Notes: generated by a model from the sequence alone, not told the origin. 24,000 bases of DNA from Hyellaceae cyanobacterium CSU_1_1 (GCA_012034765.1 JAAUOU010000049.1:2274-26273), one strand, 5' to 3'. Counted from the first letter of the stretch, positions 1 to 22,390 are shown. Numbers and translations: made by a program.

Positions 1-1330
1 ATAAAGCAAGGGTATGGAAACCGAGAAACAAAGACACCCAACTGAGGTGAGAAATAATTGCCTCTTTGTGGTCTAAAACTCTCGCTAAGACATTATCTCG
101 ATTCAATTCTGGGTCATAGTCTCGGACTAGGAAAATCGCCCCATGAGCAAATGCACCAACCATTAAAAAGCCAGCAATATATTGATGATGGGTATACAAG
201 GCAGCAGTGGTAGTAAAATCCTTGGCAATAAAAGCATAGGGAGGCATGGAATACATATGCTGTGCCACCAAAGAAGTAATTACCCCCAAACAAGCCAGAT
301 GCCATCCCAACTGGAAATGCAGCGAATCATTGTAAGTATCGTAAATTCCTTTGTGTCCCCGACCAGTATTAGGAGCGATAAAGAAACCATCCCAACCAGG
401 GCCAGATAAAGCCTCAGTCATCTCTTTAATATTGTGGCCGATACCGAAATTGGTACGGTACATATGTCCTGCAATAATAAAGATAACGGCGATCGCTAGA
501 TGGTGATGAGCCATATCTGTCAGCCACAAAGACTCGGTTTGGGGATGGAAGCCACCTAAAAAGGTTAAAATTGCCGTTCCAGCCCCTTCTGATGTACCAA
601 AGATGTGTCCTGCGGTATCGGGATTCTGAGCATAAACACCCCAATTACCACTAAAGAATGCTCCTAAACCAGCAGGATGAGGTGGAGTACTTAAAAAGTT
701 ATCCCAGCCTACGTGTTGTCCACGAGATTCGGGAATTGCCACATGAATTAAGTGACCAGCCCAAGCTAAGGAACTAACGCCGAATAGACCGGCTAAATGG
801 TGATTGAGTCGCGATTCGGCATTTTTAAACCAAGCCAAACTGGGGCGGAATTTAGGCTGTAAATGTAACCAGCCAGCAAATAACATTACTGATGCTAGCA
901 GCATCAAAAATATCGACCCCATATATAGCTCATTGTTAGAGCGCATCCCAATGGTATACCACCAATGATAAACACCTGAATAGCAAATGTTAACGGGATT
1001 AGAAGCGCCTGCTTGGGTAAAGGCTTCAATCGCCCCTGGCCCAAATTGTGGATCCCAGATAGCGTGAGCAATGGGCGGAATACTGATTGGATCTTTAATC
1101 CACAGTTCAAAGTTGCCTTGCCATGCGACGTGAAATAATAGTCCCGATGTCCACAGGAAGATAATGGCAAGATGACCAAAATGAGAAGCAAAAATCTTTT
1201 GATAGAGATTCTCTTCCGTCATACCGTCATGCAGTTCAAAATCATGCGCTGTGGCAATTCCGTACCAAATACGTCGGGTAGTTGGATCTTGAGCAAGGTC
1301 TTGGCTAAATTTAGGAAATTTAGTAGCCAT
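1..1330 (-). CDS. psaB2: Photosystem I P700 apoprotein A2 (PsaB), far-red-type paralog. 5' portion only, continuing past the left window edge.
   Basis: Missing from the ORF track because the frame has no stop inside the window. Manual minus-strand translation from ATG 1330..1328 gives [63 protein letters not shown]...[100 protein letters not shown]..., open through position 1. The listed ORFs at 114-1366 are all in other frames. Confidence 0.92.
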
Positions 1331-1362
1331 AATAGTTGCTTAATTTTTGAAGATTATTGTTG

Positions 1363-1386
1363 GTAGGGGCGAACGATTGTTCGCCC
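1363..1386. repeat. GTAGGGGCGAAC-gatt-GTTCGCCC hairpin element in the psaA2-psaB2 spacer
   Basis: Perfect 8-bp stem GGGCGAAC / GTTCGCCC with a 4-nt loop. It belongs to a family also seen at 12500, 17418, 18300, 18856 and 19424. Confidence 0.8.
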
Positions 1387-1410
1387 TCACAAGTTTGTGA
1401 TTTGGTTTAT

Positions 1411-3741
1411 CTAACCAATTGCTGACATCCTCGCCAGGAAGAATGCCCAAGTGGTGACAATTCCCCCTAGTAGGTAATGAGCTACTCCTACAGCGCGACC
1501 TTGAGTAATACTGAGGGCGCGGGGTTGAATGGCAGGGGTAATCTTGAGCTTGTTGTGGGCCCAAACAATTGATTCGATCAGTTCTTGCCAATAGCCACGA
1601 CCACTAAACAAGAACATGAGACTAAAGGCAAAGACAAAGTGTCCTGCTAAAAACATCAAACCGTAGCCAGAAAGCGCACTATTGTAAGAAGTAATTACTT
1701 GGGAAGCTTGCGCCCAGAGAAAGTCCCGCAGCCAACCGTTATTGGTAATCGAGCTAGTAGCAAAATTACCCGCCGTAATGTGACTGATAGTTCCGTCTGC
1801 GCCTACAGTTCCCCAAACATCGGACTGCATCTTCCAAAAGAAGTGAAAAATTACAATCGATAGAGAGTTATACATCCAAAACAGACCGAGAAAAATATGA
1901 TCCCAGGCTGATACCTGACAAGTACCCCCTCTTCCTGGCCCATCACAGGGGAAGCGGAAACCTAAATCGCCTTTATCGGGAATTAAACGAGAACTACGAG
2001 CATATAAAACGCCTTTGAGTAGTACCAACACCGTGACGTGAATGGTAAAAGCATGAATATGGTGAATCAAAAAGTCTGCCGTCCCCAAGGTAATCGGCAT
2101 CATTGCCACTTTACCCCCAACAGCCAACACTCCCCCACCAAAAGCATAACTTACAGGTTCACTTAACCCAGGTGCAGTAGTTCCCAATCCTCCCAGTGCA
2201 ATATTATTTAAACCACCAAAGACATTCCCTAACGGTTGGGCTGCTTCTAGTGCTGAATTACCAACCGCCATTGTATGGATGTGCTGAATCCACTGAGCAA
2301 AGACGGGCTGTAACTGAATTCCCGTATCCGAAAACATATCTTGGGGACGACCAAAGGCTCGCATTGTATCGTTATGACAATAAATAGCAAAGCTATGGAA
2401 GCCTAAAAATTGACATACCCAGACCAAATGAGAAGTAATAGCATCGCGGTGACGCAGCACTCGGTCTAATAAGTTGTTGACGTTTTCCGCTGGGTTATAA
2501 TCTCGCACCATAAAAATAGCAGCATGAGCAGCAGCACCGACTATCAAAAATCCGCCAATCCAAACATGATGGGTAAACAAAGATAGGGTAGTAGCATAGT
2601 CAGTCGCCAAATAGGGATAGGGTGGCATTGCATACATATGATGTGCCACGATAATGCTAAGAGAACCTAACATTGCTAGATTGATGGCAAGTTGCGCGTG
2701 CCAGGAAGTAGTTAAAATTTCATATAGACCTTTATGTCCTTGACCTGTAAATGGCCCTTTATGAGCTTCTAGTATTTCCTTCATGCTGTGACCAATACCC
2801 CAATTGGTACGGTACATATGTCCCGCAATAATTAAGACCACTGCTAGTGCCAAGTGGTGATGGGCAGTATCCGATAGCCACAAGCCACCTGTAACAGGAT
2901 TCAAACCACCTTTAAAGGTCAGAAAGTCAGAATAGACTCCCCAATTTAGAGTAAAAAATGGTCTTAATCCTTCGGCAAAACTAGGATAAAGTTCAGCCAT
3001 CTTACTAGCATCAATAAATTCATGAGGAAGAGGAATATCCGCAGGAGCAACTCCTGCGTCTAAAAGTTTATTAATGGGTAGTGCCACATGAATTTGATGT
3101 CCTGCCCAGCCTAGTGAACCTAAGCCTAGCAATCCAGCTAAATGATGATTCATCATCGACTCAGCATTTTGAAACCATTCTAATTTGGGGGCGCGGACGT
3201 GATAGTGAAACCAGCCAGCAAAGATCATTAGAGCAGCCATTACTAAACCGCCGATCGCAGTACAATAAAGCTGAAACTCATTAGTAAAACCAGCAGCACG
3301 CCAGAGTTGAAATAAACCAGAAGTGATCTGGATGCCATGAAAACCACCACCCATGTCGCCATTGAGAATGTCTTGACCAAAGATCGGCCAAACTACCTGC
3401 GCGCTGGGTTTAATATTAGTCGGACTGGCTAACCAAGCAGTATAGTTAGAAAACTTGGCACCGTGAAAGTACATTCCACTCAGCCAGACAAAAACTATCG
3501 CTAAATGTCCGAAGTGGGCGGAAAATATTTTGCGGGAAATATCTTCTAAGTCTCCAGTGTGAGTATCAAAATCGTGAGCGTCAGCGTGTAGATTCCAAAT
3601 CCAAGTGGTAGTTTTTGGGCCGCGCGCCAAAGTGCGGTCAAAATGTCCTGGTTTTGCCCACTTTTCAAAAGAAGTAGGTACAGGATTAGTATCTACGACA
3701 ACTTTCGCCTTTTGCTCCGATTCGGAAGGGCTAATTGTCAT
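1411..3741 (-). CDS. psaA2: Photosystem I P700 apoprotein A1 (PsaA), far-red-type paralog
   Basis: 776-aa ORF with a typical PsaA N-terminus ([35 protein letters not shown]) and the FX cluster loop [15 protein letters not shown]. An AAGGAG Shine-Dalgarno sits about 9 nt upstream of the ATG on the minus strand. Confidence 0.97.
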
Positions 3742-3966
3742 TTATATTCTCCTTCACTAGTTAATGGTTATTGGTTATGTACTGTCAATTGCCAACAACT
3801 AATGATAATTAAATGTATTTTGGGTGTAGATTTGCCTATTGTTTTAAACCTGCGCTCTGTAGTGGCGCAGAGGTATAATCGCACTCTTCATTTAGCTTAT
3901 TTCTAGCTAAAACTGAATTGATTTTCTTGGAACGTACTAAATCTGCGTTGTGCAATTTCATCACCA

Positions 3967-4018
3967 TAATTCCTTGCTAAAGGGTAAACATCGACTATTA
4001 CTGCGGTTTCCGAGGCCA
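3967..4018 (-). promoter_or_regulatory. Conserved upstream element, copy 1, oriented toward psaA2
   Basis: The reverse complement reads TGGCCTCGGAAACCGC-AGTAATAGTCGATGTTT-ACCCTTTAGCAAGGAATTA. The same two boxes recur at 10010..10068 and 11299..11352. Confidence 0.6.
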
Positions 4019-4599
4019 AAGGTAATAGAACGACTTTAATAAATTCAACTACTAATCAAACGGGTTTTGTTCGATTGCTTAATTTGTATGATGTTGGAAA
4101 AAAACTAAGTTTTGTGATGCAATATCATAGATTGCTCTATTTAAACTTATATCAAAAGACAATGATTAATTACAAAATGATGCTTTTGTTTTTACAAAAC
4201 TTTAACACTTGAGTATAAAAGTTACTAGGGTTAGTTGTTCTGAGCTTTAAAACCATTTATATATGTATATGGCTTTGATAGAAAAAACAAAATAGATAAT
4301 TATTAAAAATAATCAGTAAAAAACAGCTAACAGGAGCTAAAAGTCAACAATTGTTAAATATCTGAATATTTTTTCAAGTTTTTATGTAGAAGTAGAAATA
4401 AGCTGTTATTCATTTATTTTGATCGCTCACAAGCCTTGCTGCAAAGATTCTAGACTTTGAAAATCCTAATTTAAATGCATGTCAGCTTAATATCAATTTA
4501 TTTGAATCAGACAATAATTAGATAACATTATTTATTCTTTGAGGCATAAAGTCACTTATCTTTGAATTTAAAACTAACATATATTTTGGTTTGCATTTT

Positions 4600-6461
4600 A
4601 TGAAAATCTTATTAGTTGAAGATGATGAACTTATTGCTCAAACCCTAGAAAATGTTTTGCGCGATCGCACTATATAGTCGATCGTGCTGATGAAGGTGAT
4701 TTAGGTTGGGAGTTTGTCGAGGCTTATGATTATGATTTAATTTTGCTCGATATTATTTTACCTAAACTAAACGGAATAGAGTTTTGTAAAAGATTGCGTT
4801 CGGCGGGAAATCAAACTCCAGTATTATTATTGACTGCCCAAAATTCTAGTGATAAAAAAGTAATTGGGTTAGATGCAGGAGCAGATGATTATGTCGTCAA
4901 ACCTTTTGAAATTACCGAATTATTAGCTCGTATTCGTGTTTTATTACGTCGCACAAATTCTTTGTTGTTACCAGTTTTACAATGGAGAGAACTGAGCCTT
5001 AATTCTAGTATTCACGAAGTAGTTTATCAAGAAAAAATACTAAATTTAACTCCCAAAGAATATCGTTTATTAGAGCTTTTCTTACGCAGTAGCGATCTTG
5101 TTTTGACAAAAGAAATGATCTTAGATCGTTTGTGGGACATAGAAGAAGCCCCTAGTGAAAATGCGATAGCGGTTCATATTAAAGATTTACGGCGCAAACT
5201 AAAACAAGCAGGTGCTAGTACTGATTTTATTGAAACTGTTTATGGTATTGGTTATCGTCTTAAGGCATTCAATACCGATACTGCTGCTGAAAAAAGAGAA
5301 AAAAAAGAACCGCAAACAGAACAATTATTGCGCCAACAAATCAAGCAAAAATTAAACACAGTTTGGGAAAAGTTTGAGGACGTAAATAGTGATCGCTTGA
5401 CAATTCTGGAACAAGCAAATCATGCTTGGCTAGCGGATAGTTTAGAAAGTCAGCTTTTAGAACAGGCACAATGGGCTGCTCATAAGCTAGCGGGAGGATT
5501 AGGGGTGTTTGGCTTTGCCCAAGGCTCTCGTTACGCCCTAGAGATGGAAGAATTATTAAAAATCGAATCCAAAACGGATCGAGGGAGAGAATTTTCGGAA
5601 CTATTAGCAGCTTTAAAAAATTCCTTAAAATCTGATCTTGAGCCACAATTAAACCCAGTAAATCAAAATCGACCAGTAATCTTGGCGGTAGATAATCATC
5701 CCCAACTAGTAAAGCAATTAGTCGCTGAGATGAGCGCGCTCGACATGAGCTTTCAACTGGTAAAAAAGCCCATATCTCTGAAAAAGGCTTTAGCCAGGAC
5801 TAGTCTTAATGCTATTATCTGGGATTTTTCCCTGGCTAACTTTACTGCCAAAACCATCGATGAATTTGCTCAAATCCTGGCAGAGAGCTTGCCCCTACCA
5901 ACAATCTTATTTACCGACTCTGAAGAAGAAGCAGCAAAGCTCAAGAACATAACTTCTTTACGGTTAAAAATCGCCCGTCTCAATCATCACATCTTGCTAC
6001 AGCGGGCTAGTTTGGATATGCAGGCTACCAAATCAATCGTCAAAGCTTTACAACAATTTCAGCAGAAAGTTGCCAAAATTCTGGTGGTAGATGATGATCC
6101 ACAGATCCTGGCGACGATCAAAAATTTACTAAACCCCCTCAACATCGACTTGACTGTTTTAGATAAATCCCTAGATTTGTGGCAGATAATCCCTGAATTA
6201 AAGCCAGATCTACTAATCTTGGATGTGGCGATGCCTGACCTAAATGGGATTGAGCTATGTCAACTACTGCGAAATGATTGCCGTTGGCAAGAGTTACCAA
6301 TTTTGTTTTTGACAATTCACAATGACCTTACTACTGTTCAGGAAATTTTAAGAGCAGGTGGTAATGATTGTATTAGTAAAACCCAAACTTCCTCACAATT
6401 AGTTCCTAAAATATTTAATCACCTTAATCGGGGTCAATTACTTACCAGCTTAGTTTCATGA
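4600..6461 (+). pseudogene. rfpB: RfpB-type response regulator (REC, OmpR-type winged helix, HPt-like segment, degenerate REC, REC). The reading frame is broken near 4668 as sequenced, possibly by a sequencing artefact.
   Basis: ATG 4600 opens MKILLVEDDELIAQTLENVLRDRTI* with the stop at 4675. The receiver continues in another frame (HYIVDRADEGDLGWEFVEAYDYDLILLDIILPKLNG...), which is the listed 4743..6461 ORF. Winged-helix segment: LTPKEYRLLELFLRSSDLVLTKEMILDRLW...VYGIGYRL. C-terminal REC: KILVVDDDPQ...DLLILDVAMPDLNG. Confidence 0.85.
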
Positions 6462-8980
6462 ATAATGAACAATTAAATTTTAAGCAACCACAGCATCCTC
6501 AAAGGATTGCTAACGACAAAGCTGATTCTCTAGAGATGTTGCTGCATCGGATGATTAATCGCATTCGACAATCTTTGGAATTGTCGGTCATTCTCTCTGG
6601 CACTACTGCAGAGGTGCGATCTTTTTTAAGAACAGATCGAGTTAAAATTTATCAATTTAAACCAGATGGTAGTGGAGAAGTTGTAGCTGAATCAAGGTGC
6701 GATGACCAAATAAATCATCATTTGCCATCTTTATTGGGTCAACATTTTCCAGAGGAAGATATTCCTCCACAAATCCGCGAACTTTATCTTAAAGATCGCC
6801 ATCGAACTATTGTGAATGTTGCTGCCAACCAAATCGGTATCAGCACCTTAACTGATGAGCATGAGGGTGAATATATTCAATTTCGCACTGTCGATCCTTG
6901 TCATGCTGAATATTTAACGGCAATGGGAGTTCAGTCTTCTTTAGTAGTGCCGATTATTGATGAAGACAACCTTTGGGGATTGTTGGTTTCTCATCATCAT
7001 TGTCCTCGTATAGTGACCGCGAGAGAATTAGAAGTAGTTCAGTTAGTTGCGGATCAAACCTCAATTGCGATCGCTCAATCCAATTTATTAGAATCTGCCC
7101 GCGTCCAAGCCAAGCAAGAAGCCTCAATAAATCTGGTTGGTCAGTCTTTACATTCGATGACTCCCATGCAGCTACAACAGGCTTTGCAGCAAACTGTGGT
7201 GGCTTTACAAGGATCGGGAGGTAGAGTTTATATTGCCCCGCCCAATTCTGATTCAGAAGCACAATTATATGTTTCTGGAGAACAACCTATATTGTTACCC
7301 AGAAAAAAGAAAGCATCAATTCCTTTGGAAGAACATCCAAACTGGCAAACCTGGCTCAAACAAGCGATCGAGAGTGACAGTGTAATTCAACCCTGGGCGA
7401 TTGGTTATGCCAGCTCAAAAAGCATCGTTGAATTAGCTTTAAATCTGTTACCGTCGCAGCTAGAAAGAGCCTTTAAACCGACTAATATCAAAAGTATCTT
7501 AACGATTAGGTTAGAACATCGGCAAAAAATCTTAGGTTATCTCAGTATTTTTCGCCAGGGTGTAGATATTGAGACTATTTGGGCAAAACGTCCCGATCGC
7601 GATGATCCTCGTAATCAATTTCCCCGTCAATCTTTTGAGACTTGGCGCGAACTCCAGCAAAATAAAGCCCGTCAATGGGAGAAGAGAGAAATTGAACTAG
7701 CACAAATTCTAGGTAGTCACTTTGCGATCGCTATTTTTCAATATCAACTATACCAGCAGATTCGCACTCTTAACGCTTCCTTAGAACAGCGAGTGGAAGA
7801 ACGAACAACGGAGTTACAACAAACCAATCAGCAATTAGTCCAGGAAATAAGCGATCGCTTAAAAACCAGAGACTCCCTGGAAAGACTAAGTCATCAAAAT
7901 GAATTGATTTTAAATTCAGCAGGAGAAGGCATTTATGGACTCAACCTAGAAGGGATCACTACCTTTGTTAACCCCGCTGCTGCGGAAATGCTGGGATATC
8001 AGATAAATGAATTAGAAAACCAGCCGATGCACGAGATGGTCAATCACTCGACAGCAGAGGGAGTTGTCTATGCTTGGCAGGATAATCCCATTTATCAAAC
8101 CATCCAAACTGGCGAGATACACCACGTAACTAATGAGGTATTTTGGCACCAAGATAAATCTAATTTTCCCGTAGAATATGTTAGTACTCCCATTAAAGAA
8201 AAAGAGCAGATCGTAGGGGCAGTAGTAATTTTCAAAGATATTACCGAACGACAAATTATGGATCGGATGAAGGACGAATTTATTTCGGTAGTTAGTCATG
8301 AACTGAGAACCCCCCTAACTTCTATTCGTAGTGCGATCGGCGTGTTGTCTAGTAGTGGTTTAGATCCAACATCGAGCAAAAGTCAACGCTTATTAGAAAT
8401 TGCCCTCGATAATTCCAATCGTCTGGTGCGTTTAATTAATGACATTTTAGACTTAGAGCGCATTAAATCTGGCAGAGTAACTATGGTTAAAGGAAGTTAT
8501 GGTGCTACAGAAGTAATGATTGATGCCGTAGAGATCATGCAAGGGATAGCGGATAAAGCTCAGATCCAACTAGCCATACAACCATTATCAGTTCAAGTGC
8601 GAATCGATCGCGATCGCATTATTCAAACCCTCACCAATATAATTAACAATGCTATCAAATTTTCTTCCCCTCATACTTCCGTTGAGATAGCTGCCCAGCT
8701 AATCAGTAATGATATAGTCAGATTTCAGGTGAGAGATCGGGGTAGAGGCATTCCCCAAAAAAACTTAGAAACAATCTTTGATCGTTTTCAACAAGTTGAT
8801 GCTTCCGATTCGCGAGATCAAGGGGGAACGGGTTTAGGGCTGGCAATTTGTCGCAGTATCGTCCAGCAACATGGTGGTCAAATTTGGGTGGAAAGCACGT
8901 TAGATCAAGGTAGTACATTTTATTTCACTTTGCCAATTGGTTATCAAGTCGATACTAGGAAAGAACAATCTCATGACTAG
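6458..8980 (+). CDS. rfpA: RfpA-type knotless phytochrome histidine kinase (GAF with Cys-His bilin motif, GAF/PHY, PAS, HisKA, HATPase)
   Basis: 840 aa. GAF motif FRTVDPCHAEYLTAMGVQSSLVVPI with Cys codon at 6899..6901. PAS segment NSAGEGIYGLNLEGITTFVNPAAAEMLGY. H-box FISVVSHELRTPL with His codon at 8297..8299. G-box GGTGLGLAICRSIVQQHGGQIWVES. The start overlaps the rfpB stop as ATGA (6458..6461). Confidence 0.9.
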   Translation: MNNEQLNFKQPQHPQRIANDKADSLEMLLHRMINRIRQSLELSVILSGTTAEVRSFLRTDRVKIYQFKPDGSGEVVAESRCDDQINHHLPSLLGQHFPEEDIPPQIRELYLKDRHRTIVNVAANQIGISTLTDEHEGEYIQFRTVDPCHAEYLTAMGVQSSLVVPIIDEDNLWGLLVSHHHCPRIVTARELEVVQLVADQTSIAIAQSNLLESARVQAKQEASINLVGQSLHSMTPMQLQQALQQTVVALQGSGGRVYIAPPNSDSEAQLYVSGEQPILLPRKKKASIPLEEHPNWQTWLKQAIESDSVIQPWAIGYASSKSIVELALNLLPSQLERAFKPTNIKSILTIRLEHRQKILGYLSIFRQGVDIETIWAKRPDRDDPRNQFPRQSFETWRELQQNKARQWEKREIELAQILGSHFAIAIFQYQLYQQIRTLNASLEQRVEERTTELQQTNQQLVQEISDRLKTRDSLERLSHQNELILNSAGEGIYGLNLEGITTFVNPAAAEMLGYQINELENQPMHEMVNHSTAEGVVYAWQDNPIYQTIQTGEIHHVTNEVFWHQDKSNFPVEYVSTPIKEKEQIVGAVVIFKDITERQIMDRMKDEFISVVSHELRTPLTSIRSAIGVLSSSGLDPTSSKSQRLLEIALDNSNRLVRLINDILDLERIKSGRVTMVKGSYGATEVMIDAVEIMQGIADKAQIQLAIQPLSVQVRIDRDRIIQTLTNIINNAIKFSSPHTSVEIAAQLISNDIVRFQVRDRGRGIPQKNLETIFDRFQQVDASDSRDQGGTGLGLAICRSIVQQHGGQIWVESTLDQGSTFYFTLPIGYQVDTRKEQSHD

Positions 8981-9341
8981 AAAAATTTTAATTATCGATG
9001 ATGATGACGATATTAGAGAGGCTACCCAACTTTGCTTAGAAATCGTTGGTAATTGGGAAATTGTGACCGCAAATTCGGGAAAAACAGGTTTGGTTGTGGC
9101 GATCTCCCAGCAACCAGCTCTAATTTTGCTCGATGTAATGATGCCAGATATGGATGGTTTAGAAACTCTCAAACAATTACAAGTTAACGCTGTAACTAAA
9201 GACATTCCAGTTATGTTCCTCACGGCAAAAGCCCATCCAGCCGAACAGCGTCAATTTACCCAATTAAAAGTATCAGGGGTGATTACTAAACCCTACGATC
9301 CTTTTGAGCTATCAAATCGCATCGCTAAGGTTTTAGCTTAA
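8973..9341 (+). CDS. rfpC: RfpC-type single-domain CheY-like receiver
   Basis: MTRKILIIDDDDDIREA...LILLDVMMPDMDG...VMFLTAK...VITKPYDP has the full set of receiver signature residues. The preferred start ATG 8973 overlaps the rfpA stop (8978..8980) by 8 nt. The ORF-track start at 8937 only adds non-receiver residues inside rfpA. Confidence 0.85.
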   Translation: MTRKILIIDDDDDIREATQLCLEIVGNWEIVTANSGKTGLVVAISQQPALILLDVMMPDMDGLETLKQLQVNAVTKDIPVMFLTAKAHPAEQRQFTQLKVSGVITKPYDPFELSNRIAKVLA

Positions 9342-9463
9342 CTCAACACAGATGATCTTATCGAAGATAGAAGCGTAAGATCGCGATCTGGTGCTTCATT
9401 GGTTATTCAGATTTGTTGTTTAGTATTCAATTAAGAAAATGTCACACTGTTGACAACTTAGAG

Positions 9464-9874: not shown

Positions 9875-10009
9875 TTAATACGAACTATTAATTTACCGAT
9901 TATTTACCTTCTTCATAAGTTTTTCAGATTGGTTAGGTAATATTTTTGCAATGGATGTAAATTAGTTGCCATCCAGTTAGAATTCTTTCAGTGATAACCC
10001 CATCGTTTC

Positions 10010-11273: not shown

Positions 11274-11298
11274 TTACAATCTACTATCTTTTTGTTTT

Positions 11299-12590: not shown

Positions 12591-14006
12591 ATGGAAACAC
12601 CTTTTACCGATTTAACTATAAATATCACCGCTACGGCGGGGGATGATATTAATCCAGGACGAGAAGGCAGAGATCAAGCTTCGACTGGATACGCTTGGTG
12701 GGCAGGAAATGCTCGTTTTATCAACCTTTCTGGCAGATTTCTCGGGGCGCACGTTGCCCATGCTGGATTGATTGCCTTTTGGGCAGGAGCAATGCTGCTT
12801 TATGAAGTAGCGCACTATGATCCAGATCTGCCGATGTTTAGACAGGGATGCCTGTTGATGCCTCACATTGCTACATTGGGTTTTGGAGTTGGTCATGGTG
12901 GAGAGGTCATCAGTCTATTTCCCTTTATGGCGATCGCTGTTTTGCATCTGATTGGTTCGGCTGTTTTAGGCATGGGAGGACTTTATCATTCTCTCCGTGG
13001 GCCCAGCAAACTAGCTGGCTTTTATGATTTTGACTGGTCTGATAAGGACAAGATTACTGACATCTTAGGATATAACCTCATTGCTTTAGGCATCGGTGCA
13101 TTACTCTTGGTCTGTAAAGCCATGTTTTGGGGTGGTATTTACGACACCTGGCTACCTGGAGGCGGAGATGTACGTCTGGTAACAAATCCGACTCTCGATC
13201 CTAGAGTTATTTTTGGTTACTTTTTCAGTAGCCCTCTTGGGGGTAGTGGTTGGCTTGTAGGGGTTAATAACCTTGAAGATATTATTGGCGGTCATATCTG
13301 GATGGGGGGAATCTTAATTGCTGGTGGTATCTGGCATATTTTGACCGTTCCCTTTAAATGGACTGATAAAGTTTTTATTTGGTCGGGAGAAGCCTATCTG
13401 GCTCAAAGCTTGGGCAATATAGCAGGACAGGGATTTATTGCTGCTATGTTTATCTGGTTTAACAATACTGCTTATCCCAGTGAATTTTATGGCCCTACTG
13501 TTGCCGAATCTTCCCAAGCGCAATCATTAGTATTTCTGATTAGAGACCAAGATTTAGGCGCAAATATTGGTTCGACACAAGGGCCTGTGGGTTTGGGTAA
13601 ATACTTAATGCGATCGCCTACAGGAGAGATTATCTTTGGTGGAGAAACCATGCGCTTCTGGGATTTTCGCGGTCCTTGGCTAGAGCCTTTACGGGGAGAT
13701 CACGGTTTAGACCTGGATAAGCTGCGTAACGATGTTCAACCCTGGCAAGTACGACGGGCAGCGGACTATATGGTGCAAGCACCGATGGGGTCAATTAACT
13801 CTGTAGCAGGTTTAGCCACTGAAATAAACGGCTTTAACTTTTTATCCATACGTACCTGGATGACTGGTTCGCATATTATTCTCGCTTTCTTTTTCTTAGT
13901 CGGTCATTGGTGGCACGCAGGGAGAGCAAGAGCGCAAGCTGCTGGCTTTGAGAGAGGACTCGATCGGGATGATGAACCCGTTTTATCGATGGGAGATATT
14001 GATTGA
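12591..14006 (+). CDS. psbC2: Photosystem II CP43 (PsbC), far-red-type paralog
   Basis: 471 aa with [71 protein letters not shown]... and C-terminal [19 protein letters not shown]. Confidence 0.95.
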
Positions 14007-14361: not shown

Positions 14362-15420
14362 ATGACTATTGCAATCGATTTTCCACAATCAAATATCGGC
14401 TGGTTCAAACAAATTGATGACTGGTTAAAACGCGATCGCTTTGTGTTTATTGGCTGGTCGGGACTGCTACTCTTTCCCTGTGCTTATTTATCAATTGGCG
14501 CATGGTTTACGGGAACTACTTTTGTTAGTGCTTGGTACACTCATGGATTAGTTAGTTCTTATATCGAAGGCTGCAATGTTTTAACGACTGCGGTGTCTAC
14601 TCCTGCCGATAGTATGGGTCATTCTCTCTTATTTCTCTGGGGGCCCGAAGCCAACTGGAATTTTACGCGCTGGTGTCAAATTGGCGGTTTATGGAATTTT
14701 ACGGCTTTTCATGGAGTAATTGGGCTAATTGGCTTTATGCTGAGGCAGATTGAGATTGCCAGACTTATAGGGATACGCCCTTATAATGCGATCGCTTTTT
14801 CTGCACCCATCGCTGTATTTGTCTCCGTCTTTTTGGTCTATCCTTTGGGACAATCAAGCTGGTTCTTTGCTCCCAGTCTGGGAATAGGCGGAATATTTCG
14901 TTTTGTTTTGTTCTTTCAAGGTTTTCACAACTATACTCTCAATCCCTTTCATATGATGGGAGTAGCAGGAGTTCTAGGTGGGGCTTTGCTCTGTGCCATT
15001 CACGGGGCAACGGTACAGAATACCTTGTTTAAAGATGCCCAGGCTTTTAATACCTTTGGTGCATTTAGTCCCACCCAAGCCGAAGAAACCTACTCGATGG
15101 TGACTGCTAATCGCTTTTGGTCACAGATTTTTGGGGTTGCTTTCTCTAACAAACGCTGGCTACATTTCTTTATGCTGTTTGTGCCTGTCACAGGCTTATG
15201 GATGAGTGCGATCGGTATGGTGAGCTTGGCTTTCAACCTGCGAGCCTATGACTTTATTTCTCAAGAATTACGGGCAGCAGAAGACCCTAGTTTTGAGACT
15301 TTTTACACCAAGAATATTCTGCTTAACGAAGGTTTACGGGCTTGGATGGCACCCCAAGATCAAATCCACGAAGGTTTCCAGTTTCCTGATGAGGTATTGC
15401 CACGGGGTAATGCACAGTAA
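14362..15420 (+). CDS. psbD3: Photosystem II D2 (PsbD), far-red-type paralog
   Basis: 352 aa with [42 protein letters not shown]...[23 protein letters not shown]...[31 protein letters not shown]. Confidence 0.95.
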
Positions 15421-15606: not shown

Positions 15607-15822
15607 ATGTCTAATTTATTCAAATATAAAATTCCTCTTGATGCAGACTCTACCAGACAAGAGCAGAACAAGAATGAGGCAACTTACCCTTACGCAATAC
15701 CCTATCTTGCTTTTCTCCTAGTTTGCACCATTACCACAACCATCTTTTCAGCCATAGTAATTGTTTTAGATTACTGCTTTCCTGGTTCTCTAGATGGTAC
15801 CTATCTCAAGCTTTTTTTCTAA
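15607..15822 (+). CDS. Hypothetical 71-aa single-helix protein between psbD3 and psbB2
   Basis: Listed ORF. GGAG lies about 9 nt upstream. The polar N-terminus is followed by YPYAIPYLAFLLVCTITTTIFSAIVIVLDYCF. It is on the same strand as the PSII genes and ends 37 nt before psbB2. Confidence 0.4.
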   Translation: MSNLFKYKIPLDADSTRQEQNKNEATYPYAIPYLAFLLVCTITTTIFSAIVIVLDYCFPGSLDGTYLKLFF

Positions 15823-15859: not shown

Positions 15860-17409
15860 ATGGGTTTACCTTGGTATCGCGTCCATACAGTAGTGTTAAA
15901 CGACCCAGGACGATTGATAGCCGTTCATTTAATGCACAATGCACTGTGTGCGGGCTTTGCTGGTTCGATGCTGTTGTTTGAACTAGCTTTATACGACCCT
16001 AGTGATGCTGTTCTTAATCCGATGTGGCGACAGGGCTGTTTCTTAATGCCGTTTGTAGCTCGTTTGGGAGTAACCAATTCCTGGCAGGGTTGGAGTATCA
16101 CGGGTGAAACCCTTAGCGATCCTGGTTTTTGGACTTTTGAAACTGTGGCGATCGCTCACATTATTTTATCAGGGCTATCGTTTTTAGCCGCCTGTTGGCA
16201 TTGGGTTAACTGGGATTTGGTGACTTTCTTTGACGAAGAAGGTCAACCTACCTTAGATTTACCCAAAATATTTGGCATACATCTTTTACTCGCTGGTTTA
16301 CTCTGCTTTGGTTTTGGTGCTTTTCATCTCACGGGCATTTTTGGGCCAGGGATGTGGGTGTCAGACCCATATGGATTAACAGGACATATGCAAAATGTTG
16401 CTCCCGTCTGGGATGCAGCGGGTTTCGATCCTGATAATCCTGGGGGAGTAGTGGCACACCATATTGCCGCTGGCATTGTCGGTATTATCGGCGGACTATT
16501 TCATATCGTGGTGCGTCCTTCAGAGGAACTATATAAACTACTGAGGATGGGTAACATCGAGGGGGCATTAGCTAGTGGTTTGGCAGTCTTCTTTTTTGCA
16601 GGTGCGATCGCTAGTGGTTCAATGTGGTACGGAACGGCAACAACTCCTGTAGAACTATGGGGGCCAACTCGTTTTCAATGGGATAAGGGCTACTATCAAC
16701 AGGAAATCTCCCGCAGAGTAGAAAATAACTTGGTAGCAGGGGATAGTTTATCTCAGGCTTGGTCAAGTATCCCAGAAAAATTACTGTTCTATGACTACAT
16801 CGGTAACAATCCCTCTAAGGGTGGTTTATTCCGCTATGGTCGCATGGTTGATGGCGATGGTTTACCTCTGGCTTGGCTTGGTCATCCGATTTTCCAAGAC
16901 GATGCAGGAAGAGAGTTAACAGTTAGGCGCATGACTAGCTTTTTTGAAACTTTTCCCACTGTCTTAACTGACGAAAATAACATCGTTCGTGCTGATATTC
17001 CCTTCCGTAGAGTCGAAGCAAAAAATAGCTTTGAGCAAACAGGAGTTACTGTTAGTTTCTACGGCGGACTGTTAGACGGTCAAACTTTTACTGACCCTGT
17101 AAAAGTCAAAAATATGCTCGTCAAGCAGTATTAGGAGAAGCCTTTGAATTTGATACGCAAACCTATAATTCCGATGGCGTATTCCGCACTAGTAATCGAG
17201 GTTTCTTTGCCTATTTCCACGCCTGCTTTGCTTTACTCTGGTTTTTCGGTCATATCTGGCATGGCACGCGAGCCTTATTCAGCGATGTCTTTGCTGGTAT
17301 CAATATCGAACTAGAAGAACAAGTCGAGTTTGGCGTTTGGGCAAAAGTTGGCGATGTTACCAGTCGTAAAAAGCCAGAAGCTTTAGCAATTGAAAGTCAA
17401 TCCAAGTAA
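15860..17409 (+). pseudogene. psbB2: Photosystem II CP47 (PsbB), far-red-type paralog. The frame is broken in an A5 run at 17108..17112 as sequenced, possibly by a sequencing artefact.
   Basis: The listed ORF 15860..17134 ends ...[15 protein letters not shown]. The missing CP47 C-terminus ([63 protein letters not shown]...[20 protein letters not shown]...) is open in the neighbouring frame as far as TAA 17407..17409. Confidence 0.9.
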
Positions 17410-17417: not shown

Positions 17418-17437
17418 GGGCGAACGGCCGTTCGCCC
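17418..17437. repeat. Perfect 20-nt palindrome GGGCGAACGGCCGTTCGCCC between psbB2 and psbH2
   Basis: Self-complementary 10+10 nt, flanked by taG...gtac. Same family as the element at 1363 and others. Confidence 0.85.
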
Positions 17438-17452: not shown

Positions 17453-17641
17453 ATGACACCATCAAAATATGCCTCGAAAAAAACTGCCCCTCTCCAGTAT
17501 TTCTTTAAATCGATTAACTCCGAAGCAGGAAAAGTTACTCGCGGTTGGGGAACTACGCCACTAATGTTAGGAATCATACTTTTATTTGGTTTATTCCTGC
17601 TCATTATTGCTCAGATTGTTAATTCCTCAATTCTGCTTTAG
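17453..17641 (+). CDS. psbH2: Photosystem II PsbH, far-red-type paralog
   Basis: 62 aa. [42 protein letters not shown] matches the PsbH core (LNSEYGKV.PGWGTTP...L.I.QIYNSS). Confidence 0.85.
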
Positions 17642-17813
17642 CAATCCTAAATGAAATGAGAAATTTCTACTACCTACTACTTAAAACCAATCAATGTAGT
17701 TTCATGAATCAAATAGGACTGCTATTCAGAGGATGGACATAGCTAATAGCTATTAGTCTTTTTACAGCGAATTTCAAACACAAAACAAATTAATACTAAT
17801 TAGGAGAAAACTC

Positions 17814-18290
17814 ATGAGTATGGTTGCTGAATTAATTCTCAATGCCGATAGTGAAGCTCGTTATCTTGGCCCGAAAGAGATACATATCTTTCAGGATTTT
17901 CTTAGCAGTGGAGAACAAAGAATGAGAATCGCCAGATTCTTAGCGGAAAACGAATCAAGAATTGTGCAAAATGGTACGAACAAATTTTGGGAACGTTGTC
18001 CTGTTACTCCCAGCAATAGTGGTGTTGAGCGCAAGACTAATTCCTGCATGCGAGATCAGGGTTGGTATGTTCGCCTAATTGCCTATTCAGTTATGGCAGG
18101 CAGCGAAAAACCCCTAGAAGAAATTGGCACTATTGGTATCAAGGAAATGTATAACTCTTTGGAAATACCAATCCGCAACATCGCTGAATGTATGCAGTGC
18201 CTCAAGGAAGAAGCTGTCTCGATGATGAATGAAGAAGATGCTGGGGAGGTTGCACCCTATTTTGATTTCATTATTCAATCCCTTTCTTGA
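17814..18290 (+). CDS. Far-red allophycocyanin alpha-type subunit, ApcD-like paralog. The position suggests apcA2/apcD5-class, but the exact name is not resolved.
   Basis: 158-aa phycobiliprotein alpha fold with LNADSEARYLGPKE...TPSNSGVERKTNSCMRDQGWYVRLIAY...PYFDFIIQSLS. The bilin Cys is present. Confidence 0.85.
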   Translation: MSMVAELILNADSEARYLGPKEIHIFQDFLSSGEQRMRIARFLAENESRIVQNGTNKFWERCPVTPSNSGVERKTNSCMRDQGWYVRLIAYSVMAGSEKPLEEIGTIGIKEMYNSLEIPIRNIAECMQCLKEEAVSMMNEEDAGEVAPYFDFIIQSLS

Positions 18291-18363: not shown

Positions 18364-18849
18364 ATGCAAGACCTTATTACTTCTACCATCAATACTTTCG
18401 ATGTTCGCGCTCAATATCCCGATAGTGATGCGATGAATAGGTTAGAAAACTATTTCAAAAGTGGGGATTTACGAGCTAAAGCTTCTCTGGCTATAAGTGC
18501 TAATGCCAAATCTATTATTACTAAAGCAGTAGCTAAATCTTTGATGTATACCGACATCACTGCACCTGGAGGCAATATGTATACTTGCCGTCGTTATGCA
18601 GCCTGTATTCGTGATCTGGAATACTTTCTACGCTATGCCACCTATGCAATGTTGGCTGGCGATCCTTCGATTCTTGAAGAACGTGTTCTTAACGGTTTAC
18701 GAGAAACCTATAACTCTTTAGGAGTTCCCATCGGCGGTACAGTCAGAGCCGTTCAAGCCATGAAAGAAGTTACTGCTGACCTAGTAGGAACTGAGGCTGG
18801 GAAGGAAATGGGTGTGTATTTTGACTACATCTGTTCGGGATTGAGTTAG
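18364..18849 (+). CDS. apcB2: Allophycocyanin beta subunit, far-red-type paralog
   Basis: 161 aa with [31 protein letters not shown]...[55 protein letters not shown]...[10 protein letters not shown]. Confidence 0.9.
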
Positions 18850-18855: not shown

Positions 18856-18922
18856 GTAGGGGTAAACAGCGAACAGGACGAACAGCGACGCGAAGCTAAT
18901 CCTTTAGGGCGTTCGCCCCTAC
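18856..18922. repeat. Longer member of the hairpin family after apcB2 (GTAGGGG ... GGGCGTTCGCCCCTAC)
   Basis: Termini are GTAGGGG (18856..18862) and CCCCTAC (18916..18922). It contains an internal GGGCG-tt-CGCCC hairpin (18907..18918) and a tandem CGAACAG x2. Confidence 0.65.
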
Positions 18923-18950
18923 TTCACTATCAGTTGAGAAAAATTTAATC

Positions 18951-19427
18951 ATGAGTATTATTACTAGTTCTATTAAGAGTGCAGATCGTGAAGCACGCTA
19001 TCTAAGTCTAGGAGAGTTAAAAGCGATCGCCAATTTCTATCAAGGTGGACAAGATCGACTACGCTTGGCGCAAATTTTAGTTGCAAATGAAACTGAGATC
19101 GTCAATAAAGGCAGTCAGAGATTTTGGCAGCGATATCCTAATACTCCTAGCAATACTGGCAATCCTACCTTTAGGGCTTCTTGTATGCGAGATCAAGGTT
19201 GGTATTTGCGATTAATTACCTATGCGATCGTGTTAGGTGATACAGAACCAATTGAACAAACTGGCATTAAAGGAACAAAAGAAATGTATGAGTCTCTAGA
19301 AATTCCTCTTAAGAACCTGGCTGAATGTATGCGTTGTCTGAAAGAAGTAACCACAGAAATGTTCAGCCTCAAGGATGCTGCTGCGATCGCACCTTATTTT
19401 GACTATATCATTCAAGGATTTCTGTAG
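18951..19427 (+). CDS. Far-red allophycocyanin alpha-type subunit, ApcD-like paralog (position suggests apcD2-class)
   Basis: 158 aa with IKSADREARYLSLGE...TPSNTGNPTFRASCMRDQGWYLRLITY...PYFDYIIQGFL. Confidence 0.85.
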   Translation: MSIITSSIKSADREARYLSLGELKAIANFYQGGQDRLRLAQILVANETEIVNKGSQRFWQRYPNTPSNTGNPTFRASCMRDQGWYLRLITYAIVLGDTEPIEQTGIKGTKEMYESLEIPLKNLAECMRCLKEVTTEMFSLKDAAAIAPYFDYIIQGFL

Positions 19428-19447
19428 GGGCGAACAACAGTTCGCCC
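19424..19447. repeat. GTAGGGGCGAAC-aaca-GTTCGCCC hairpin element containing the stop codon of the preceding apc gene
   Basis: The TAG at 19425..19427 lies inside GTAGGGG. The stem is a perfect 8 bp. Confidence 0.8.
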
Positions 19448-19485: not shown

Positions 19486-21772
19486 ATGAACGTTAATACA
19501 GGTGGCGGTAGTCCCATTGTTAACCCGCAACTATATCAAACAACACCTCTTGCCGTAATTTCTCAAGCCGAACAGCAGGATCGTTTGCCAAAACAAAGTG
19601 AACTCAATCGACTTGCCAGTTATTTTAGCTCTGGTACAAAGTTATTAGAAATTGTCGATACCCTGAATCAGAATGCCGATGCAATCGTGGCTGCTGGGGG
19701 CGATCGCATTTTCTCTGGCGGTAATTCGATGGACTATCTAGAAAAGCCTAAAGAATTAGTCGATTTGCCTGGTTATGTAAAACCTATCACTGTTGCTAGT
19801 GCTGCGGTTGCCAAAGCAAATGCTACTCAGAATCAGAATAAATTTAAGACTTTTCCCGAGTCTCGATCTTTAATTAAAGGTCGTACCTTCAACTTTGTCG
19901 AATTGTTAATGGAAATAGTTTATCGACTCCAAGCAACAGGCAAAGAACCACTGCCAGGAGGATTCAGACCGATCAATATCTCTCGTTATGGCGAAAGAAG
20001 AATGAAGCGGTCAATGCGAGACTTAGGTTGGTTTCTACGCTATATTACCTATGCGATCGTGGCTGATGATCCGAGTATTTTGGTAGTAAATGCCAGAGGA
20101 CTACGGGGTGTCATTCCTGAAGATGTCACCGTAGCTACTATAGTCGCTCTCAAAGAAATGTGCTGGAAGTCTTTGAGCTATTTTCCCGATCATGAAGAGG
20201 CAAAAGATACTATCAAATATTACTTTTATGTCTTAATTAAAGAATACGAAGTTGAAAAGCCTGCTGCCAAATTGCGAGTAGGTGTATCCAATGACCAACA
20301 GGGACTAGAGTTACCCCAAAGTTATTCCTTAGCAGCAGAATCACGACCAAAGTTTGTGATGAAACACAACGCCTCGGCGATAGAAAAGCAAGCAGTAGTT
20401 AAAGCAGCTTATCGACAAGTATTTAAATGCGACATCGATCGCACCTACGGCATTACTTTTAAACAATTGGAGTCTCAGGTTACGGGTAGCAATACCTCGG
20501 TGAAAGAGTTTATTCGCAGCTTGGGTAAAACTCGTCTCTATCGTCGCTTGTTTTACGAACCATACACCATTTCTAGAGTGATCGAACTGGCATTTCGGCA
20601 CTTTTTTGGGACGGGGTTTGAGTTCGATAGAAGAGTTTCAAGATTACTTTGAAATCATGGCTCGTGGTGGTTTACCAGCTTTGATTGACGCTTTAGTGGA
20701 CTCTGCCGAATACGCTGATTATTTTGGTGAAGAAACTGTTCCCTATCTGCGAGGTTTGGGTCAAGAAGCTCAAGAATGCCGTAATTGGGGAGCGCAGCTA
20801 AATCTATTCAAATATAGTGCTGCGGTGCGAAAAGTACCTCAATTTGTCACGATGTTTGGCAACTATCAACAACCTCTATCCAACCAGCATCCCTACGGTG
20901 TGGGCAATGATCCTTTAGAAACTCAATTTGGTGCAGTTTTCCCAAGTGAAACCAACAATCCTTATGCTCAACCAGCATCCTTTAATAAAGATCATCACCG
21001 TCTGCTGCTACATTCTAGTTCAAGAATTCAAAATGTAACTAATAATTACTCTTCAAAAGAGATTTTAAAACAAAGCCAAAATGATAACAAACATCGGCAG
21101 CGAAATATTAATCTCTCAAATCATTCTGTTGAAGCCATCATTACAGGAGTATATCGGCAGGTTTTGGGACGTGAGCCTTTTTCTGGTCAACATTTAACCG
21201 TAGCTGAAACCAAACTAAGAAATAGTGAAATTAGCGTCCGTGAGTTTGTCCGACAGTTAGCTAAATCCTCCTGGTTTCGTAATTTGTATTGGGATAATCT
21301 TTATATTACTAAAGCGATCGAGTGTATTCATCGGCGTTTATTAGGTCGTCCTACCTACGGACGTGGGGAAATGAATCGATATTACGATCTTTGCTCCAAA
21401 AAAGGCTTTTATGCTCTAGTTGATGAAATCTTAGACAGTGATGAATACTTAGAAGTGTTTGGCGAAGATATAGTCCCCTACGAACGTTATCTAACCCCCA
21501 GAGGTTGGGCAAGGCGATCGCTCTCTCAACCGATTAACTGGTCACAGGCTCAACTAGATCGTCAGCATACTGCGGGAGAAGTTATAGCCGAAAAAATTAG
21601 GGAAGATCGCGATCGTCTGACCAGATTAGCATCCCAAAGCAACGGTCATGTTCGCGATCGAGTAGCAGAACAAACATCCTTAAAAACAATTGAGGACAGT
21701 AAGGAGCCAGTTACTAACTCCAATTCAATTCCAGTTGAACTCGAACCAGAAAAGCTAAAAGCTGATAGCTAA
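19486..21772 (+). pseudogene. apcE2: Phycobilisome core-membrane linker ApcE, short far-red-type paralog with two REP (linker) domains. The frame is broken in a T6 run at 20602..20607 as sequenced, possibly by a sequencing artefact.
   Basis: The listed ORFs 19486..20652 and 20606..21772 overlap in different frames. The first ends ...[24 protein letters not shown]. The second begins (L)[49 protein letters not shown], the continuation of the same Pfam00427-type linker domain. The N-terminal phycobiliprotein-like domain contains MKRSMRDLGWFLRYITYAIVADDPS. Confidence 0.9.
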
Positions 21773-21787
21773 GAGCTGATAGCTTAA
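21753..21787. repeat. STRR-like heptamer tandem array (AGCTAAA AGCTGAT AGCTAAG AGCTGAT AGCTTAA) spanning the apcE2 stop
   Basis: Five exact 7-nt-phased AGCT units. The apcE2 TAA at 21770..21772 lies inside unit 3. The array is the reverse-complement family of the one at 14009. Confidence 0.7.
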
Positions 21788-21829
21788 AACTAATCAACAA
21801 ACAACATAGTATTTTAACTTTTCACCAAT

Positions 21830-22390
21830 ATGAGTATAGTCAAACAAATGATTATTAACGCCGATGAAGAACTCCGCTATCCAAGTCTTAGCGAAATTAA
21901 TCAGCTACAAAATTTCTGCCAAACAGGAACAAACAGAATTAGGATTGCGAGAATTTTAGCTGACAATGAAACCAGGCTCGTACAAAGAGGCTCTCGTAAA
22001 TTCTGGAAACGCCGACCTATAACTCCTAGTAATAGTGGGAATCTGAGAAAGACTAATTCCTGTCAGCGCGATCAGGGTTGGTATATTCGTTTAATTGCTT
22101 ACTGTGTGTTGGCTGGAAACAATCAGCCACTTGATGAAATAGGAATAGTTGGCATGAGAGAAATGTATCAATCTTTAGGAATCCCTCTAGGAAACTGGGT
22201 AGAAGCATTAATCTGCCTGAAGGAAGAGGCGATCGCTCTATTAAATAATGAAGATGCAGATGAGGTTATTCCCTATTTTGATCGTATTATTCAAGCTTTG
22301 ATTAATCCTGGTCCTCCTTATCGCATTATCGAGCTAGAAAGATCTGGAGGCAGTATGAGTTCACAAACAGCTTTTTCAAACAGCCTCTGA
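21830..22390 (+). CDS. Far-red allophycocyanin alpha-type subunit, ApcD-like paralog (position suggests apcD3-class), with a 28-aa C-terminal tail absent from its two paralogs
   Basis: 186 aa with INADEELRYPSLSE...TPSNSGNLRKTNSCQRDQGWYIRLIAY...PYFDRIIQAL followed by INPGPPYRIIELERSGGSMSSQTAFSNSL. Confidence 0.8.
   Translation: MSIVKQMIINADEELRYPSLSEINQLQNFCQTGTNRIRIARILADNETRLVQRGSRKFWKRRPITPSNSGNLRKTNSCQRDQGWYIRLIAYCVLAGNNQPLDEIGIVGMREMYQSLGIPLGNWVEALICLKEEAIALLNNEDADEVIPYFDRIIQALINPGPPYRIIELERSGGSMSSQTAFSNSL

Follow-up and report, generated by a model that had tools for sequence, protein, structure and literature searches.

The window analysed here is a 24,000-bp stretch of Hyellaceae cyanobacterium CSU_1_1 (GCA_012034765.1, JAAUOU010000049.1:2274-26273). 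Positions 1-22390 hold a dense array of photosystem, phycobilisome-core and phytochrome genes, which almost certainly constitute the cluster for far-red light photoacclimation (FaRLiP) in a cyanobacterium of the Pleurocapsa/Hyellaceae type from South African peritidal stromatolites. Listing and translation of the open reading frames (ORFs) revealed a minus-strand block of psaB2 (partial, running off the left edge) and psaA2, and a plus-strand block with the order rfpB, rfpA, rfpC, rfpD, psbA3, chlF, psbC2, psbD3, a 71-codon ORF, psbB2, psbH2, apcD5, apcB2, apcD2, apcE2 and apcD3. The two blocks diverge from an 858-bp spacer (3742-4599) of 30% G+C. A preliminary description of this DNA had already named the photosystem, phycobilisome-core and phytochrome genes and assigned them to FaRLiP; ORFs, translations and NCBIfam/Pfam matches put every one of them in its place, and the content, order and paralogue identity are all those of a FaRLiP cluster. 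The two divergent blocks that it described around a regulator trio were also recovered, except that the regulators head the plus block and number four, rfpB-rfpA-rfpC-rfpD. Its gene list needs amending in two respects: psbB2, apcE2 and rfpB are frameshifted in the window, and the conserved ORF at 15607-15822 had been missed. The assignment is supported by gene content, gene order, paralogue type and three copies of an intergenic motif, and chance resemblance is not an issue, with NCBIfam equivalog scores far over the cut-off for PsaA, PsbA, PsbC, PsbD and CP47.

A recent survey of FaRLiP clusters defines a core set of 19 genes: apcB2/D2/D3/D5/E2, psaA2/B2/F2/I2/J2/L2, chlF, psbA3/B2/C2/D3 and rfpA/B/C (bioRxiv 10.1101/2024.05.15.594131). 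Fifteen of the 19 are inside the window. The other four, psaL2, psaI2, psaF2 and psaJ2, had been predicted just past the left edge, and they are found there in the 99.96%-identical contig of Pleurocapsa sp. SU_5_0 (L086), where psaB2 is directly followed by psaL2 (189 residues), a PsaI2-like gene (56 residues), psaF2 (159 residues) and psaJ2 (46 residues, PF01701).

Far-red and white-light paralogues were told apart by the signature motifs in Table S5 of the same preprint, and all nine FaRLiP-specific motifs were found, either in the window or, for PsaB2 and PsaI2, in the SU_5_0 contig. The window carries the first 443 codons of psaB2 (1-1330, minus strand), with a far-red type loop; the full gene in the sibling contig encodes 743 residues and has the PsaB2 motif TPLSFGYPKDKPVALSIV at 17 of 18 positions. 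The PsaI2 motif is the weakest match (10 of 17), with the key Tyr kept. PsaA2 (1411-3741, minus strand; 776 residues) scores 1503 bits against TIGR01335 and matches its motif at 16 of 18 positions, and the far-red D1 protein PsbA3 (10191-11273, plus strand, as are all the following genes; 360 residues) scores 720 bits against TIGR01151 with a complete motif (16/16). PsbC2 (12591-14006; 471 residues; TIGR01153, 745 bits) matches at 24 of 29 positions of a motif that includes the far-red deletion; PsbD3 (14362-15420) has 352 residues and 706 bits against TIGR01152; and PsbB2 (15860-17409), split in the window by a 1-bp deletion at 17107, retains all 14 motif residues and 744 bits against the CP47 model. 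The 62-residue PsbH2 (17453-17641) matches Pfam PsbH with 68 bits and displays the AP..QY signature. On the antisense strand of psbC2, the Rfam family IsrR (RF01419, the isiA antisense RNA) gives a full-length match at 13035-13221 (minus strand; 140 bits, E = 6.5e-29), which most likely derives from homology between the psbC2 and isiA coding sequences rather than from a real antisense RNA.

Structural databases agree with the motifs. PsaA2 has its best Protein Data Bank (PDB) matches in 6pnj/7lx0 and 7s3d, with one continuous alignment each, and PsbA3 in 8eqm, 9t5t, 7sa3 and 9t5u; we take 6pnj, 7lx0, 7s3d, 8eqm and 7sa3 to be structures of far-red photosystems I and II (PSI and PSII).

The gene chlF (psbA4; 11360-12502, 380 residues) encodes a predicted chlorophyll f synthase that carries the complete ChlF motif (23/23) and falls under the PsbA equivalog cut-off (509 versus 596 bits). 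Alignment against the window's own PsbA3 showed the exchanges L127Q, G128D, D170E, E189D, H332R, E333Q, H337L and A344Q, with Y161, H190, H198, H215 and H272 kept. PsbA3 keeps every ligand of the Mn cluster, whereas ChlF has lost D170, E189, H332, E333, H337 and A344. ChlF thus combines the two hallmarks of a chlorophyll f synthase, the QD pair at D1 positions 127-128 and the loss of Mn4CaO5 ligands.

The phycobilisome-core genes close the plus-strand block. ApcD5 (17814-18290, 158 residues) has as its best PDB match 8uhe_A, named 'ApcD5' (273 bits); ApcD2 (18951-19427, 158 residues) matches 9i1r_I with 224 bits and 8uhe_I 'ApcD2' with 201 bits; and ApcD3 (21830-22390, 186 residues) matches 9i1r_C with 222 bits and 8uhe_C 'ApcD3' with 218 bits. 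The entry 8uhe is a far-red allophycocyanin core whose chains were named ApcD5, ApcD2, ApcD3 and ApcE2 by the depositors; for the three alpha subunits these named chains rank best, or second only to an unnamed chain of 9i1r. For PsaA2, PsbA3 and all three ApcD paralogues, the top matches are thus far-red complexes of solved structure, in agreement with the motifs. ApcD3 owes its length to a C-terminal extension that is usual for this paralogue; 8uhe_C has 181 residues and aligns over residues 1-174. Between apcD5 and apcD2 lies apcB2 (18364-18849, 161 residues), which is syntenic and 81-94% identical in two Pleurocapsa metagenome-assembled genomes (MAGs; L003 and L004) and Hydrococcus rivularis NIES-593 (L009). 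The gene apcE2 (19486-21772) is split in the window by a 1-bp insertion at 20602 and intact in the sibling assemblies, where it encodes 761 residues with two PBS_linker_poly domains (PF00427, REP). Its VIPEDV core reads from position 20050 onwards, and its bilin site lacks the Cys (SMRDLGWF, where the ApcD paralogues have SCMRDQGWY). ApcE2 matches two two-REP chains of the ApcE2 type (780-783 residues), including 8uhe_K 'ApcE2', but longer white-light ApcE chains outscore them in bits.

The closest clusters other than those of the siblings are found in Hydrococcus rivularis NIES-593 and in Pleurocapsa MAGs, whose ChlF is 82-86% identical. Gene order is identical in L003, L004, L009, Pleurocapsa minor HA4230-MV1 (L089) and a further cluster, L212. 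This layout is that of group IV (Chroococcales/Pleurocapsales), exemplified by Hydrococcus rivularis NIES-593, Pleurocapsa minor HA4230-MV1 and Pleurocapsa sp. PCC 7327: a divergent psa block, then rfpB-A-C-D, psbA3, chlF, psbC2, psbD3, a small ORF, psbB2, psbH2 and apcD5-B2-D2-E2-D3. The window shares with group IV the placement of psbC2 ahead of psbD3, a translocation described as specific to this group (bioRxiv 10.1101/2024.05.15.594131), and the intergenic motif before psbA3, chlF and the psa genes. Protein identity between the window and group IV clusters is lowest for RfpD compared with Hydrococcus (about 50%) and highest for PsbC2 compared with L003 (99%). Two differences were seen. L089 and L212 have an additional gene, psbH2', downstream of psbH2 (12275-12415 and 12198-12338, respectively; a separate gene of 46 codons), whereas a search of the corresponding interval of the window (17642-17813) found no such ORF; and the 71-codon ORF of the window is a long form with an insert of about 25 residues. 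Compared to the original FaRLiP cluster, that of Leptolyngbya sp. JSC-1, and to the characterised systems of Synechococcus sp. PCC 7335 and Chlorogloeopsis fritschii PCC 9212, the window has the same paralogue set, RfpABC, the QD pair of ChlF, and an ApcE2 with two REP domains and VIPEDV, but differs in gene order; in most other groups apc precedes psb.

Protein clusters tie the window to three MAGs, Pleurocapsa sp. CRU_1_2 (GCA_012033675.1), Pleurocapsa sp. SU_5_0 (GCA_012030825.1) and Hyellaceae cyanobacterium CSU_1_1 itself. The window is 99.96% identical in nucleotide sequence to the first two over the shared 21-24 kb; the CRU_1_2 copy, located through an exact ChlF protein match, lies on contig JAAUOH010000068.1 and has this identity over 21 kb. 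The labels CRU, SU and CSU designate places sampled in a study of the Cape Recife/Schoenmakerskop stromatolites, for which sequencing was done by Ion Torrent. The preprint lists the apcE2 genes of CRU_1_2 (NJO96835.1) and SU_5_0 (NJK57233.1) as belonging to 'Complete' FaRLiP clusters from microbialites, and CSU_1_1 is absent from its list; one possible reason, at the level of a guess, is the split apcE2, the marker gene of that survey. The FaRLiP system itself is already known and the cluster of this population already catalogued, so the novelty of the finding is low.

All three assemblies have the same genes in the same order and the same rfpB frameshift. A three-way alignment of them revealed one single-nucleotide polymorphism, 11 single-base indels and one complex indel/substitution site (17756-17758, in a T-rich stretch of the psbH2-apcD5 spacer at 17642-17813), and nothing else. 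All 11 indels fall in runs of 3-7 A or T, and each is private to one assembly. Those of the window break psbB2 (A5 instead of A6 at 17107) and apcE2 (T6 instead of T5 at 20602), and two more are intergenic; those of CRU_1_2 break psaB2, rfpA and psbD3; and those of SU_5_0 break psaA2, chlF, apcD5 and, at another site than in CRU_1_2, rfpA. Thus the window alone of the three has rfpA, psaA2, psaB2 (the part within it), chlF, psbD3 and apcD5 all intact, and it alone has broken psbB2 and apcE2; psbB2 encodes an intact protein of 516 residues in both siblings. In a protein-cluster look-up, the intact 840-residue RfpA occurs solely as NJR46398.1 of CSU_1_1. A majority consensus of the three assemblies restores every gene except rfpB. 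This reciprocal pattern of private indels, together with the Ion Torrent platform, argues for homopolymer sequencing errors rather than biology, and we infer that psbB2 and apcE2 are intact in the organism; as each such indel is private to one assembly, we rejected the two genes as real pseudogenes. The preliminary description had left it at an organism that has, or had, the far-red capacity. This is now mostly resolved in favour of the former, as the psbB2 and apcE2 breaks are errors of one assembly, save for the rfpB frameshift that is common to all copies.

The four regulators follow one another at the head of the plus-strand block. RfpA (6458-8980, 840 residues) has the layout GAF (42-205), PHY (348-424), PAS (482-597), HisKA (604-672) and HATPase (717-827) by Pfam, which, with no PAS ahead of the GAF, is that of a knotless phytochrome, and the Cys-His of its bilin pocket lies in DPCHAEYL. 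By domains and motif it is a knotless phytochrome histidine kinase, with its photochemistry predicted. RfpC (8973-9341, 122 residues; Pfam Response_reg, 84.7 bits), also called as a gene in the sibling contig, and RfpD (9491-9874, 127 residues; Response_reg, 31.7 bits) are both single-domain, CheY-like response regulators. RfpD is syntenic in L003, L004, L009 and two further clusters, L008 and L010, and its position and domain are those of 'rfpD' in Table S8 of the preprint. RfpB (4600-6461) consists of REC, winged-helix, Hpt-like and second REC domains, all of them recognisable by Pfam, with the N-terminal REC interrupted by a 1-bp deletion at 4668/4669. The deletion leads to a TAG stop at 4675-4677, and the longest ORF restarts at a TTG at 4743 and encodes 572 residues.

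The genes and motifs read here fit into the established FaRLiP model, reportedly the work of Gan and colleagues in 2014, Zhao and colleagues in 2015 and Ho and colleagues in 2016, from which the following mechanism is taken. The knotless phytochrome kinase RfpA would sense light beyond 700 nm, and its signal would reach RfpB, a DNA-binding regulator, via RfpC and perhaps also RfpD. RfpB would then activate three units that share one conserved element at their head. One, psaA2-B2-L2-I2-F2-J2, is on the minus strand; the other two, on the plus strand, are psbA3 and chlF together with the genes that follow it. ChlF would make chlorophyll f, and paralogous PSI, PSII and a two-cylinder allophycocyanin core (ApcD5/B2/D2/E2/D3) would replace their white-light versions.

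Several points weigh against taking the cluster as a working far-red apparatus. Induction by far-red light, synthesis of chlorophyll f/d and red-shifted complexes are predictions for an uncultured organism represented by MAGs only, and the "second set" of photosystem genes is a designation drawn from paralogue signatures. A further point is that the master regulator RfpB may be truly damaged. Its lesion is identical in the window, in CRU_1_2, in SU_5_0 and in a Logan re-assembly of SRR14117740, as established by direct DNA comparison for CRU_1_2 and SRR14117740, and by the three-way alignment with the same 572-residue product for SU_5_0. Unlike the other indels, it sits not in an A/T run but at a C/G dinucleotide step, between CGC and AC, where relatives read CAC-CAT or TGC-CAT; the lesion, within the region 4660-4677, falls on the 3' border of a GCGATCGC (HIP1) palindrome. 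A search of 5.8 billion proteins with the repaired 620-residue RfpB found no intact allele of at least 90% identity: the only match at that level is the truncated form of 572 residues, whereas relatives are full length (603-650 residues), and those at 84-85% identity have 617-620 residues and cover the whole query. Programmed frameshifting was considered and rejected, the sequence GAU CGC ACU AUA UAG having no slippery heptamer.

We therefore weighed the possibility that the cluster is structurally intact yet regulatorily crippled: the rfpB deletion would be real, and FaRLiP would be uninducible or altered, possibly constitutive, through a truncated RfpB. The shared lesion outside any A/T homopolymer and the truncated form as the sole close protein speak for it. 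Moreover, the other 11 single-base indels are all singletons, and none is common to exactly two of the three assemblies, as a frequent site-specific systematic error would predict, so that this kind of error finds poor support. However, site-specific indel errors are possible in Ion Torrent data, and the assemblies, judging from the sample codes, appear to share a single study and platform. Furthermore, the other genes are intact once the private errors are removed and rfpB has no further damage downstream, so that the lesion, if real, is recent and any inactivation very recent. On balance, the frameshift is probably real in the DNA. If so, the N-terminal receiver domain would lack its first ~47 residues, and it is this truncation that makes the ability of the population to induce the response uncertain; that the response is actually crippled is a possibility to be taken seriously, though we hold it to be somewhat short of probable.

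The three units share an intergenic motif. An exact 15-mer, GGCCTCGGAAACCGC, occurs three times in the window (0.21 copies would be expected even with three mismatches allowed), each time in the right orientation for the downstream gene: at 4003-4017 (minus strand) before psaA2, at 10011-10025 before psbA3 and at 11300-11314 before chlF. The surrounding elements span 3971-4038 (minus strand; motif 3982-4038), 9990-10064 (plus strand; motif 9990-10047) and 11279-11348 (plus strand; motif 11279-11335), respectively; the 5' half of the motif forms a hairpin with the 15-mer as its loop core. About 20-25 nt after each core, and 15-25 nt past the 3' arm of the hairpin, stands a Shine-Dalgarno (SD)-like box, ACCCTTTTAG(C/T)AAGGA, which for chlF is the ribosome-binding site. 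Before rfpB, rfpD and the apc genes no copy of the 15-mer was found in the window, which suggests one long unit from chlF to apcD3, one psbA3 unit and one psa operon. The motif matches the 'chlF/long motif' class, which has been ascribed to RfpB binding (bioRxiv 10.1101/2024.05.15.594131).

In each element, the invariant core is flanked by an inverted repeat whose arms vary by site and species while their complementarity is kept, so that an invariant loop, TGGCCTCGGAAACCGCA, is closed by a covarying stem. The arms read CCCCATCG and CGATGGGG for psbA3, CTATTAC and GTAATAG for psaA2, and CTATCT and AGATAG for chlF in the window, compared to CTATCAATCGC and GCGATTGATAG for chlF in L212 and CCCGTCGCA and TGCGACGGG for chlF in Leptothermofonsia, in which the inner CGG/CCG pairing is switched to AGG/CCT. 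Among 13 sites aligned by MAFFT, 88% of the cells pair, against 24-60% with a slid partner, and nine of the 13 pairs change on both sides. With 19 model-aligned sites, 91% pair and 11 of the 13 pairs show a compensatory change, a level that none of 500 shuffles reaches; as that alignment was fitted to the structure and its sites are related, these figures are biased towards the hairpin. When a covariance model derived from the 13 MAFFT-aligned sites was run over 1.33 Mb of cyanobacterial DNA, it matched FaRLiP sites only, including three Nostoc chlF leaders outside the training set. Folded as single sequences, the window copies give weak z-scores (-0.7 to -1.3); Rfam has no family that matches the element; and the counts of G·U versus A·C (18 versus 12) are not decisive between action as RNA and as DNA. 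The text of the preprint mentions no hairpin, stem or inverted repeat, and a 2023 paper describes the target of RfpB as still being sought; the hairpin nature of the motif appears to be new. The covarying stem, the fixed loop and an SD-like box within 15-25 nt may point to a transcribed element acting at the RNA level, or to a structured nucleic acid recognised through its loop.

Other features around the motif were followed up. A metagenome scan for more copies with the 14-mer GGCCTCGGAAACCG gave 120 stretches; judged by the model search, they match by chance. Upstream of psaA2, a small ORF (MKLHNADLVRSKKINSVLARNKL...; 3836-3967, minus strand) begins directly behind the SD-like box. L003 and L004 share its first ~27 codons as well as two nucleotide blocks, GATTTAGT and AATTCAGTTTTAGC. 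We do not claim it as a gene, as it shows no significant similarity to the ChlF N-terminus and its substitutions have no synonymous bias; the conserved stretch may be an element at the nucleotide level rather than a peptide. An upstream ORF after the psbA3 motif was rejected because it is not conserved. Scans for promoter and terminator consensus sequences gave no enrichment over shuffles. Inspection by eye showed that four spacers contain a short GC-rich hairpin with the pattern GGGCGAAC(N4)GTTCGCCC, at 1368-1390 (psaB2-psaA2), 17418-17437 (psbB2-psbH2), 18920-18938 (apcB2-apcD2) and 19428-19447 (apcD2-apcE2). These hairpins may belong to a small family of repeated stem-loops or act as stabilisers between cistrons.

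The 71-codon ORF (orf71; 15607-15822, plus strand) encodes a PsaJ2-like small membrane protein. All group IV clusters examined have it in the psbD3-psbB2 interval (14062-14265 in L003, 14098-14241 in L004, 13976-14077 in L009, 10001-10141 in L089 and 10001-10216 in L212). A database search gave 43 cluster representatives; all those with a named source are labelled hypothetical or uncharacterised membrane proteins and come either from Pleurocapsales or from unclassified cyanobacterial MAGs. Short forms, of 46-49 residues, align along their whole length with the PsaJ2 of the same organism, one of them with 31% identity (39 residues, E = 6e-7), and share with it LNYFFPG..GTY. Six of 13 family members reach PF01701 at E <= 0.01, and the window form, with its insert of about 25 residues after MSNLFKY, scores 17.9 bits against a cut-off of 22.4. 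The C-terminus, FPGSLDGTYLKLFF, is near-invariant. Two other identities were rejected: orf71 is not psbH2', which is the separate gene downstream of psbH2 in L089 and L212, nor the only psaJ2 of the cluster, as the canonical gene follows psaF2 in the SU_5_0 contig. From these alignments, orf71 looks like a PsaJ2-derived paralogue that would be expressed with the far-red PSII genes. To our knowledge, neither rfpD nor this PsaJ2-like ORF is part of the original FaRLiP description of 20-21 genes.

Taken jointly, the two features allow a bolder reading, in which the motif is not a simple DNA operator, being a hairpin with a freely covarying stem and a fixed loop, UGGCCUCGGAAACCGCA, and orf71, placed by Pleurocapsales clusters within the far-red PSII operon, is a second PsaJ2-derived small subunit and perhaps an undescribed component of the far-red apparatus. 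We put this pair of claims forward tentatively and regard it as rather unlikely to hold in full.

Far less likely is a decaying relic in which the psbB2, apcE2 and rfpB frameshifts are all real pseudogenising mutations. Three genes of the window are indeed out of frame, and decay seems to have precedent in the lineage, where a related group IV cluster has fragmented psbA3, chlF and psbD3, a truncated psbB2 next to a DUF4096 element and no apc genes. But psbB2 and apcE2 are intact in both siblings, which have their own private breaks elsewhere, the majority consensus restores all genes but rfpB, and the indels fall in A/T runs as Ion Torrent error predicts. We consider such a relic highly improbable and retain the assignment to a FaRLiP cluster whose structural genes are intact. 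The related cluster (L211; ERZ25070591 ctg148552, a 5.98-Mb contig, 1-11200) is of interest in its own right. It looks truly degraded, with psbC2 fragmented as well and the truncated psbB2 beside the DUF4096 element, and it keeps rfpA, rfpC, rfpD, the intergenic motif and orf71; either FaRLiP has genuinely been lost here or the long-read assembly is noisy.

To the right of apcD3, the minus strand of 22461-23715 holds an unassigned 95-codon ORF and a XerC/D-type tyrosine recombinase (22792-23715, 307 residues). A horizontally acquired mobile island brought by this recombinase is very unlikely, for although it lies 400 bp from apcD3 and recurs in SU_5_0, the right-hand neighbours vary by cluster (PGK in L212, PqqA/GSDH in L089, RelE and a type I restriction-modification gene in another cluster, L214), no G+C break marks the cluster boundary, gene order tracks the host lineage, and the literature favours vertical descent.

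As an example of FaRLiP the cluster adds little, since the system has been known since 2014 and two sibling MAGs were already catalogued. It is a cautionary case, in that apparent pseudogenes in a photosynthesis island of an Ion Torrent MAG can be pure homopolymer artefacts, and a marker-based survey may, as we infer, have missed CSU_1_1 owing to such a split in apcE2. The remaining interest lies in the hairpin nature of the motif, the PsaJ2-like gene and the possibly real lesion of rfpB. The first two are cheap, testable leads on the regulation of FaRLiP and on the composition of far-red photosystems. If the rfpB frameshift is real, this would be a natural population with a complete far-red apparatus and a damaged master switch, which bears on how FaRLiP is lost in the field.

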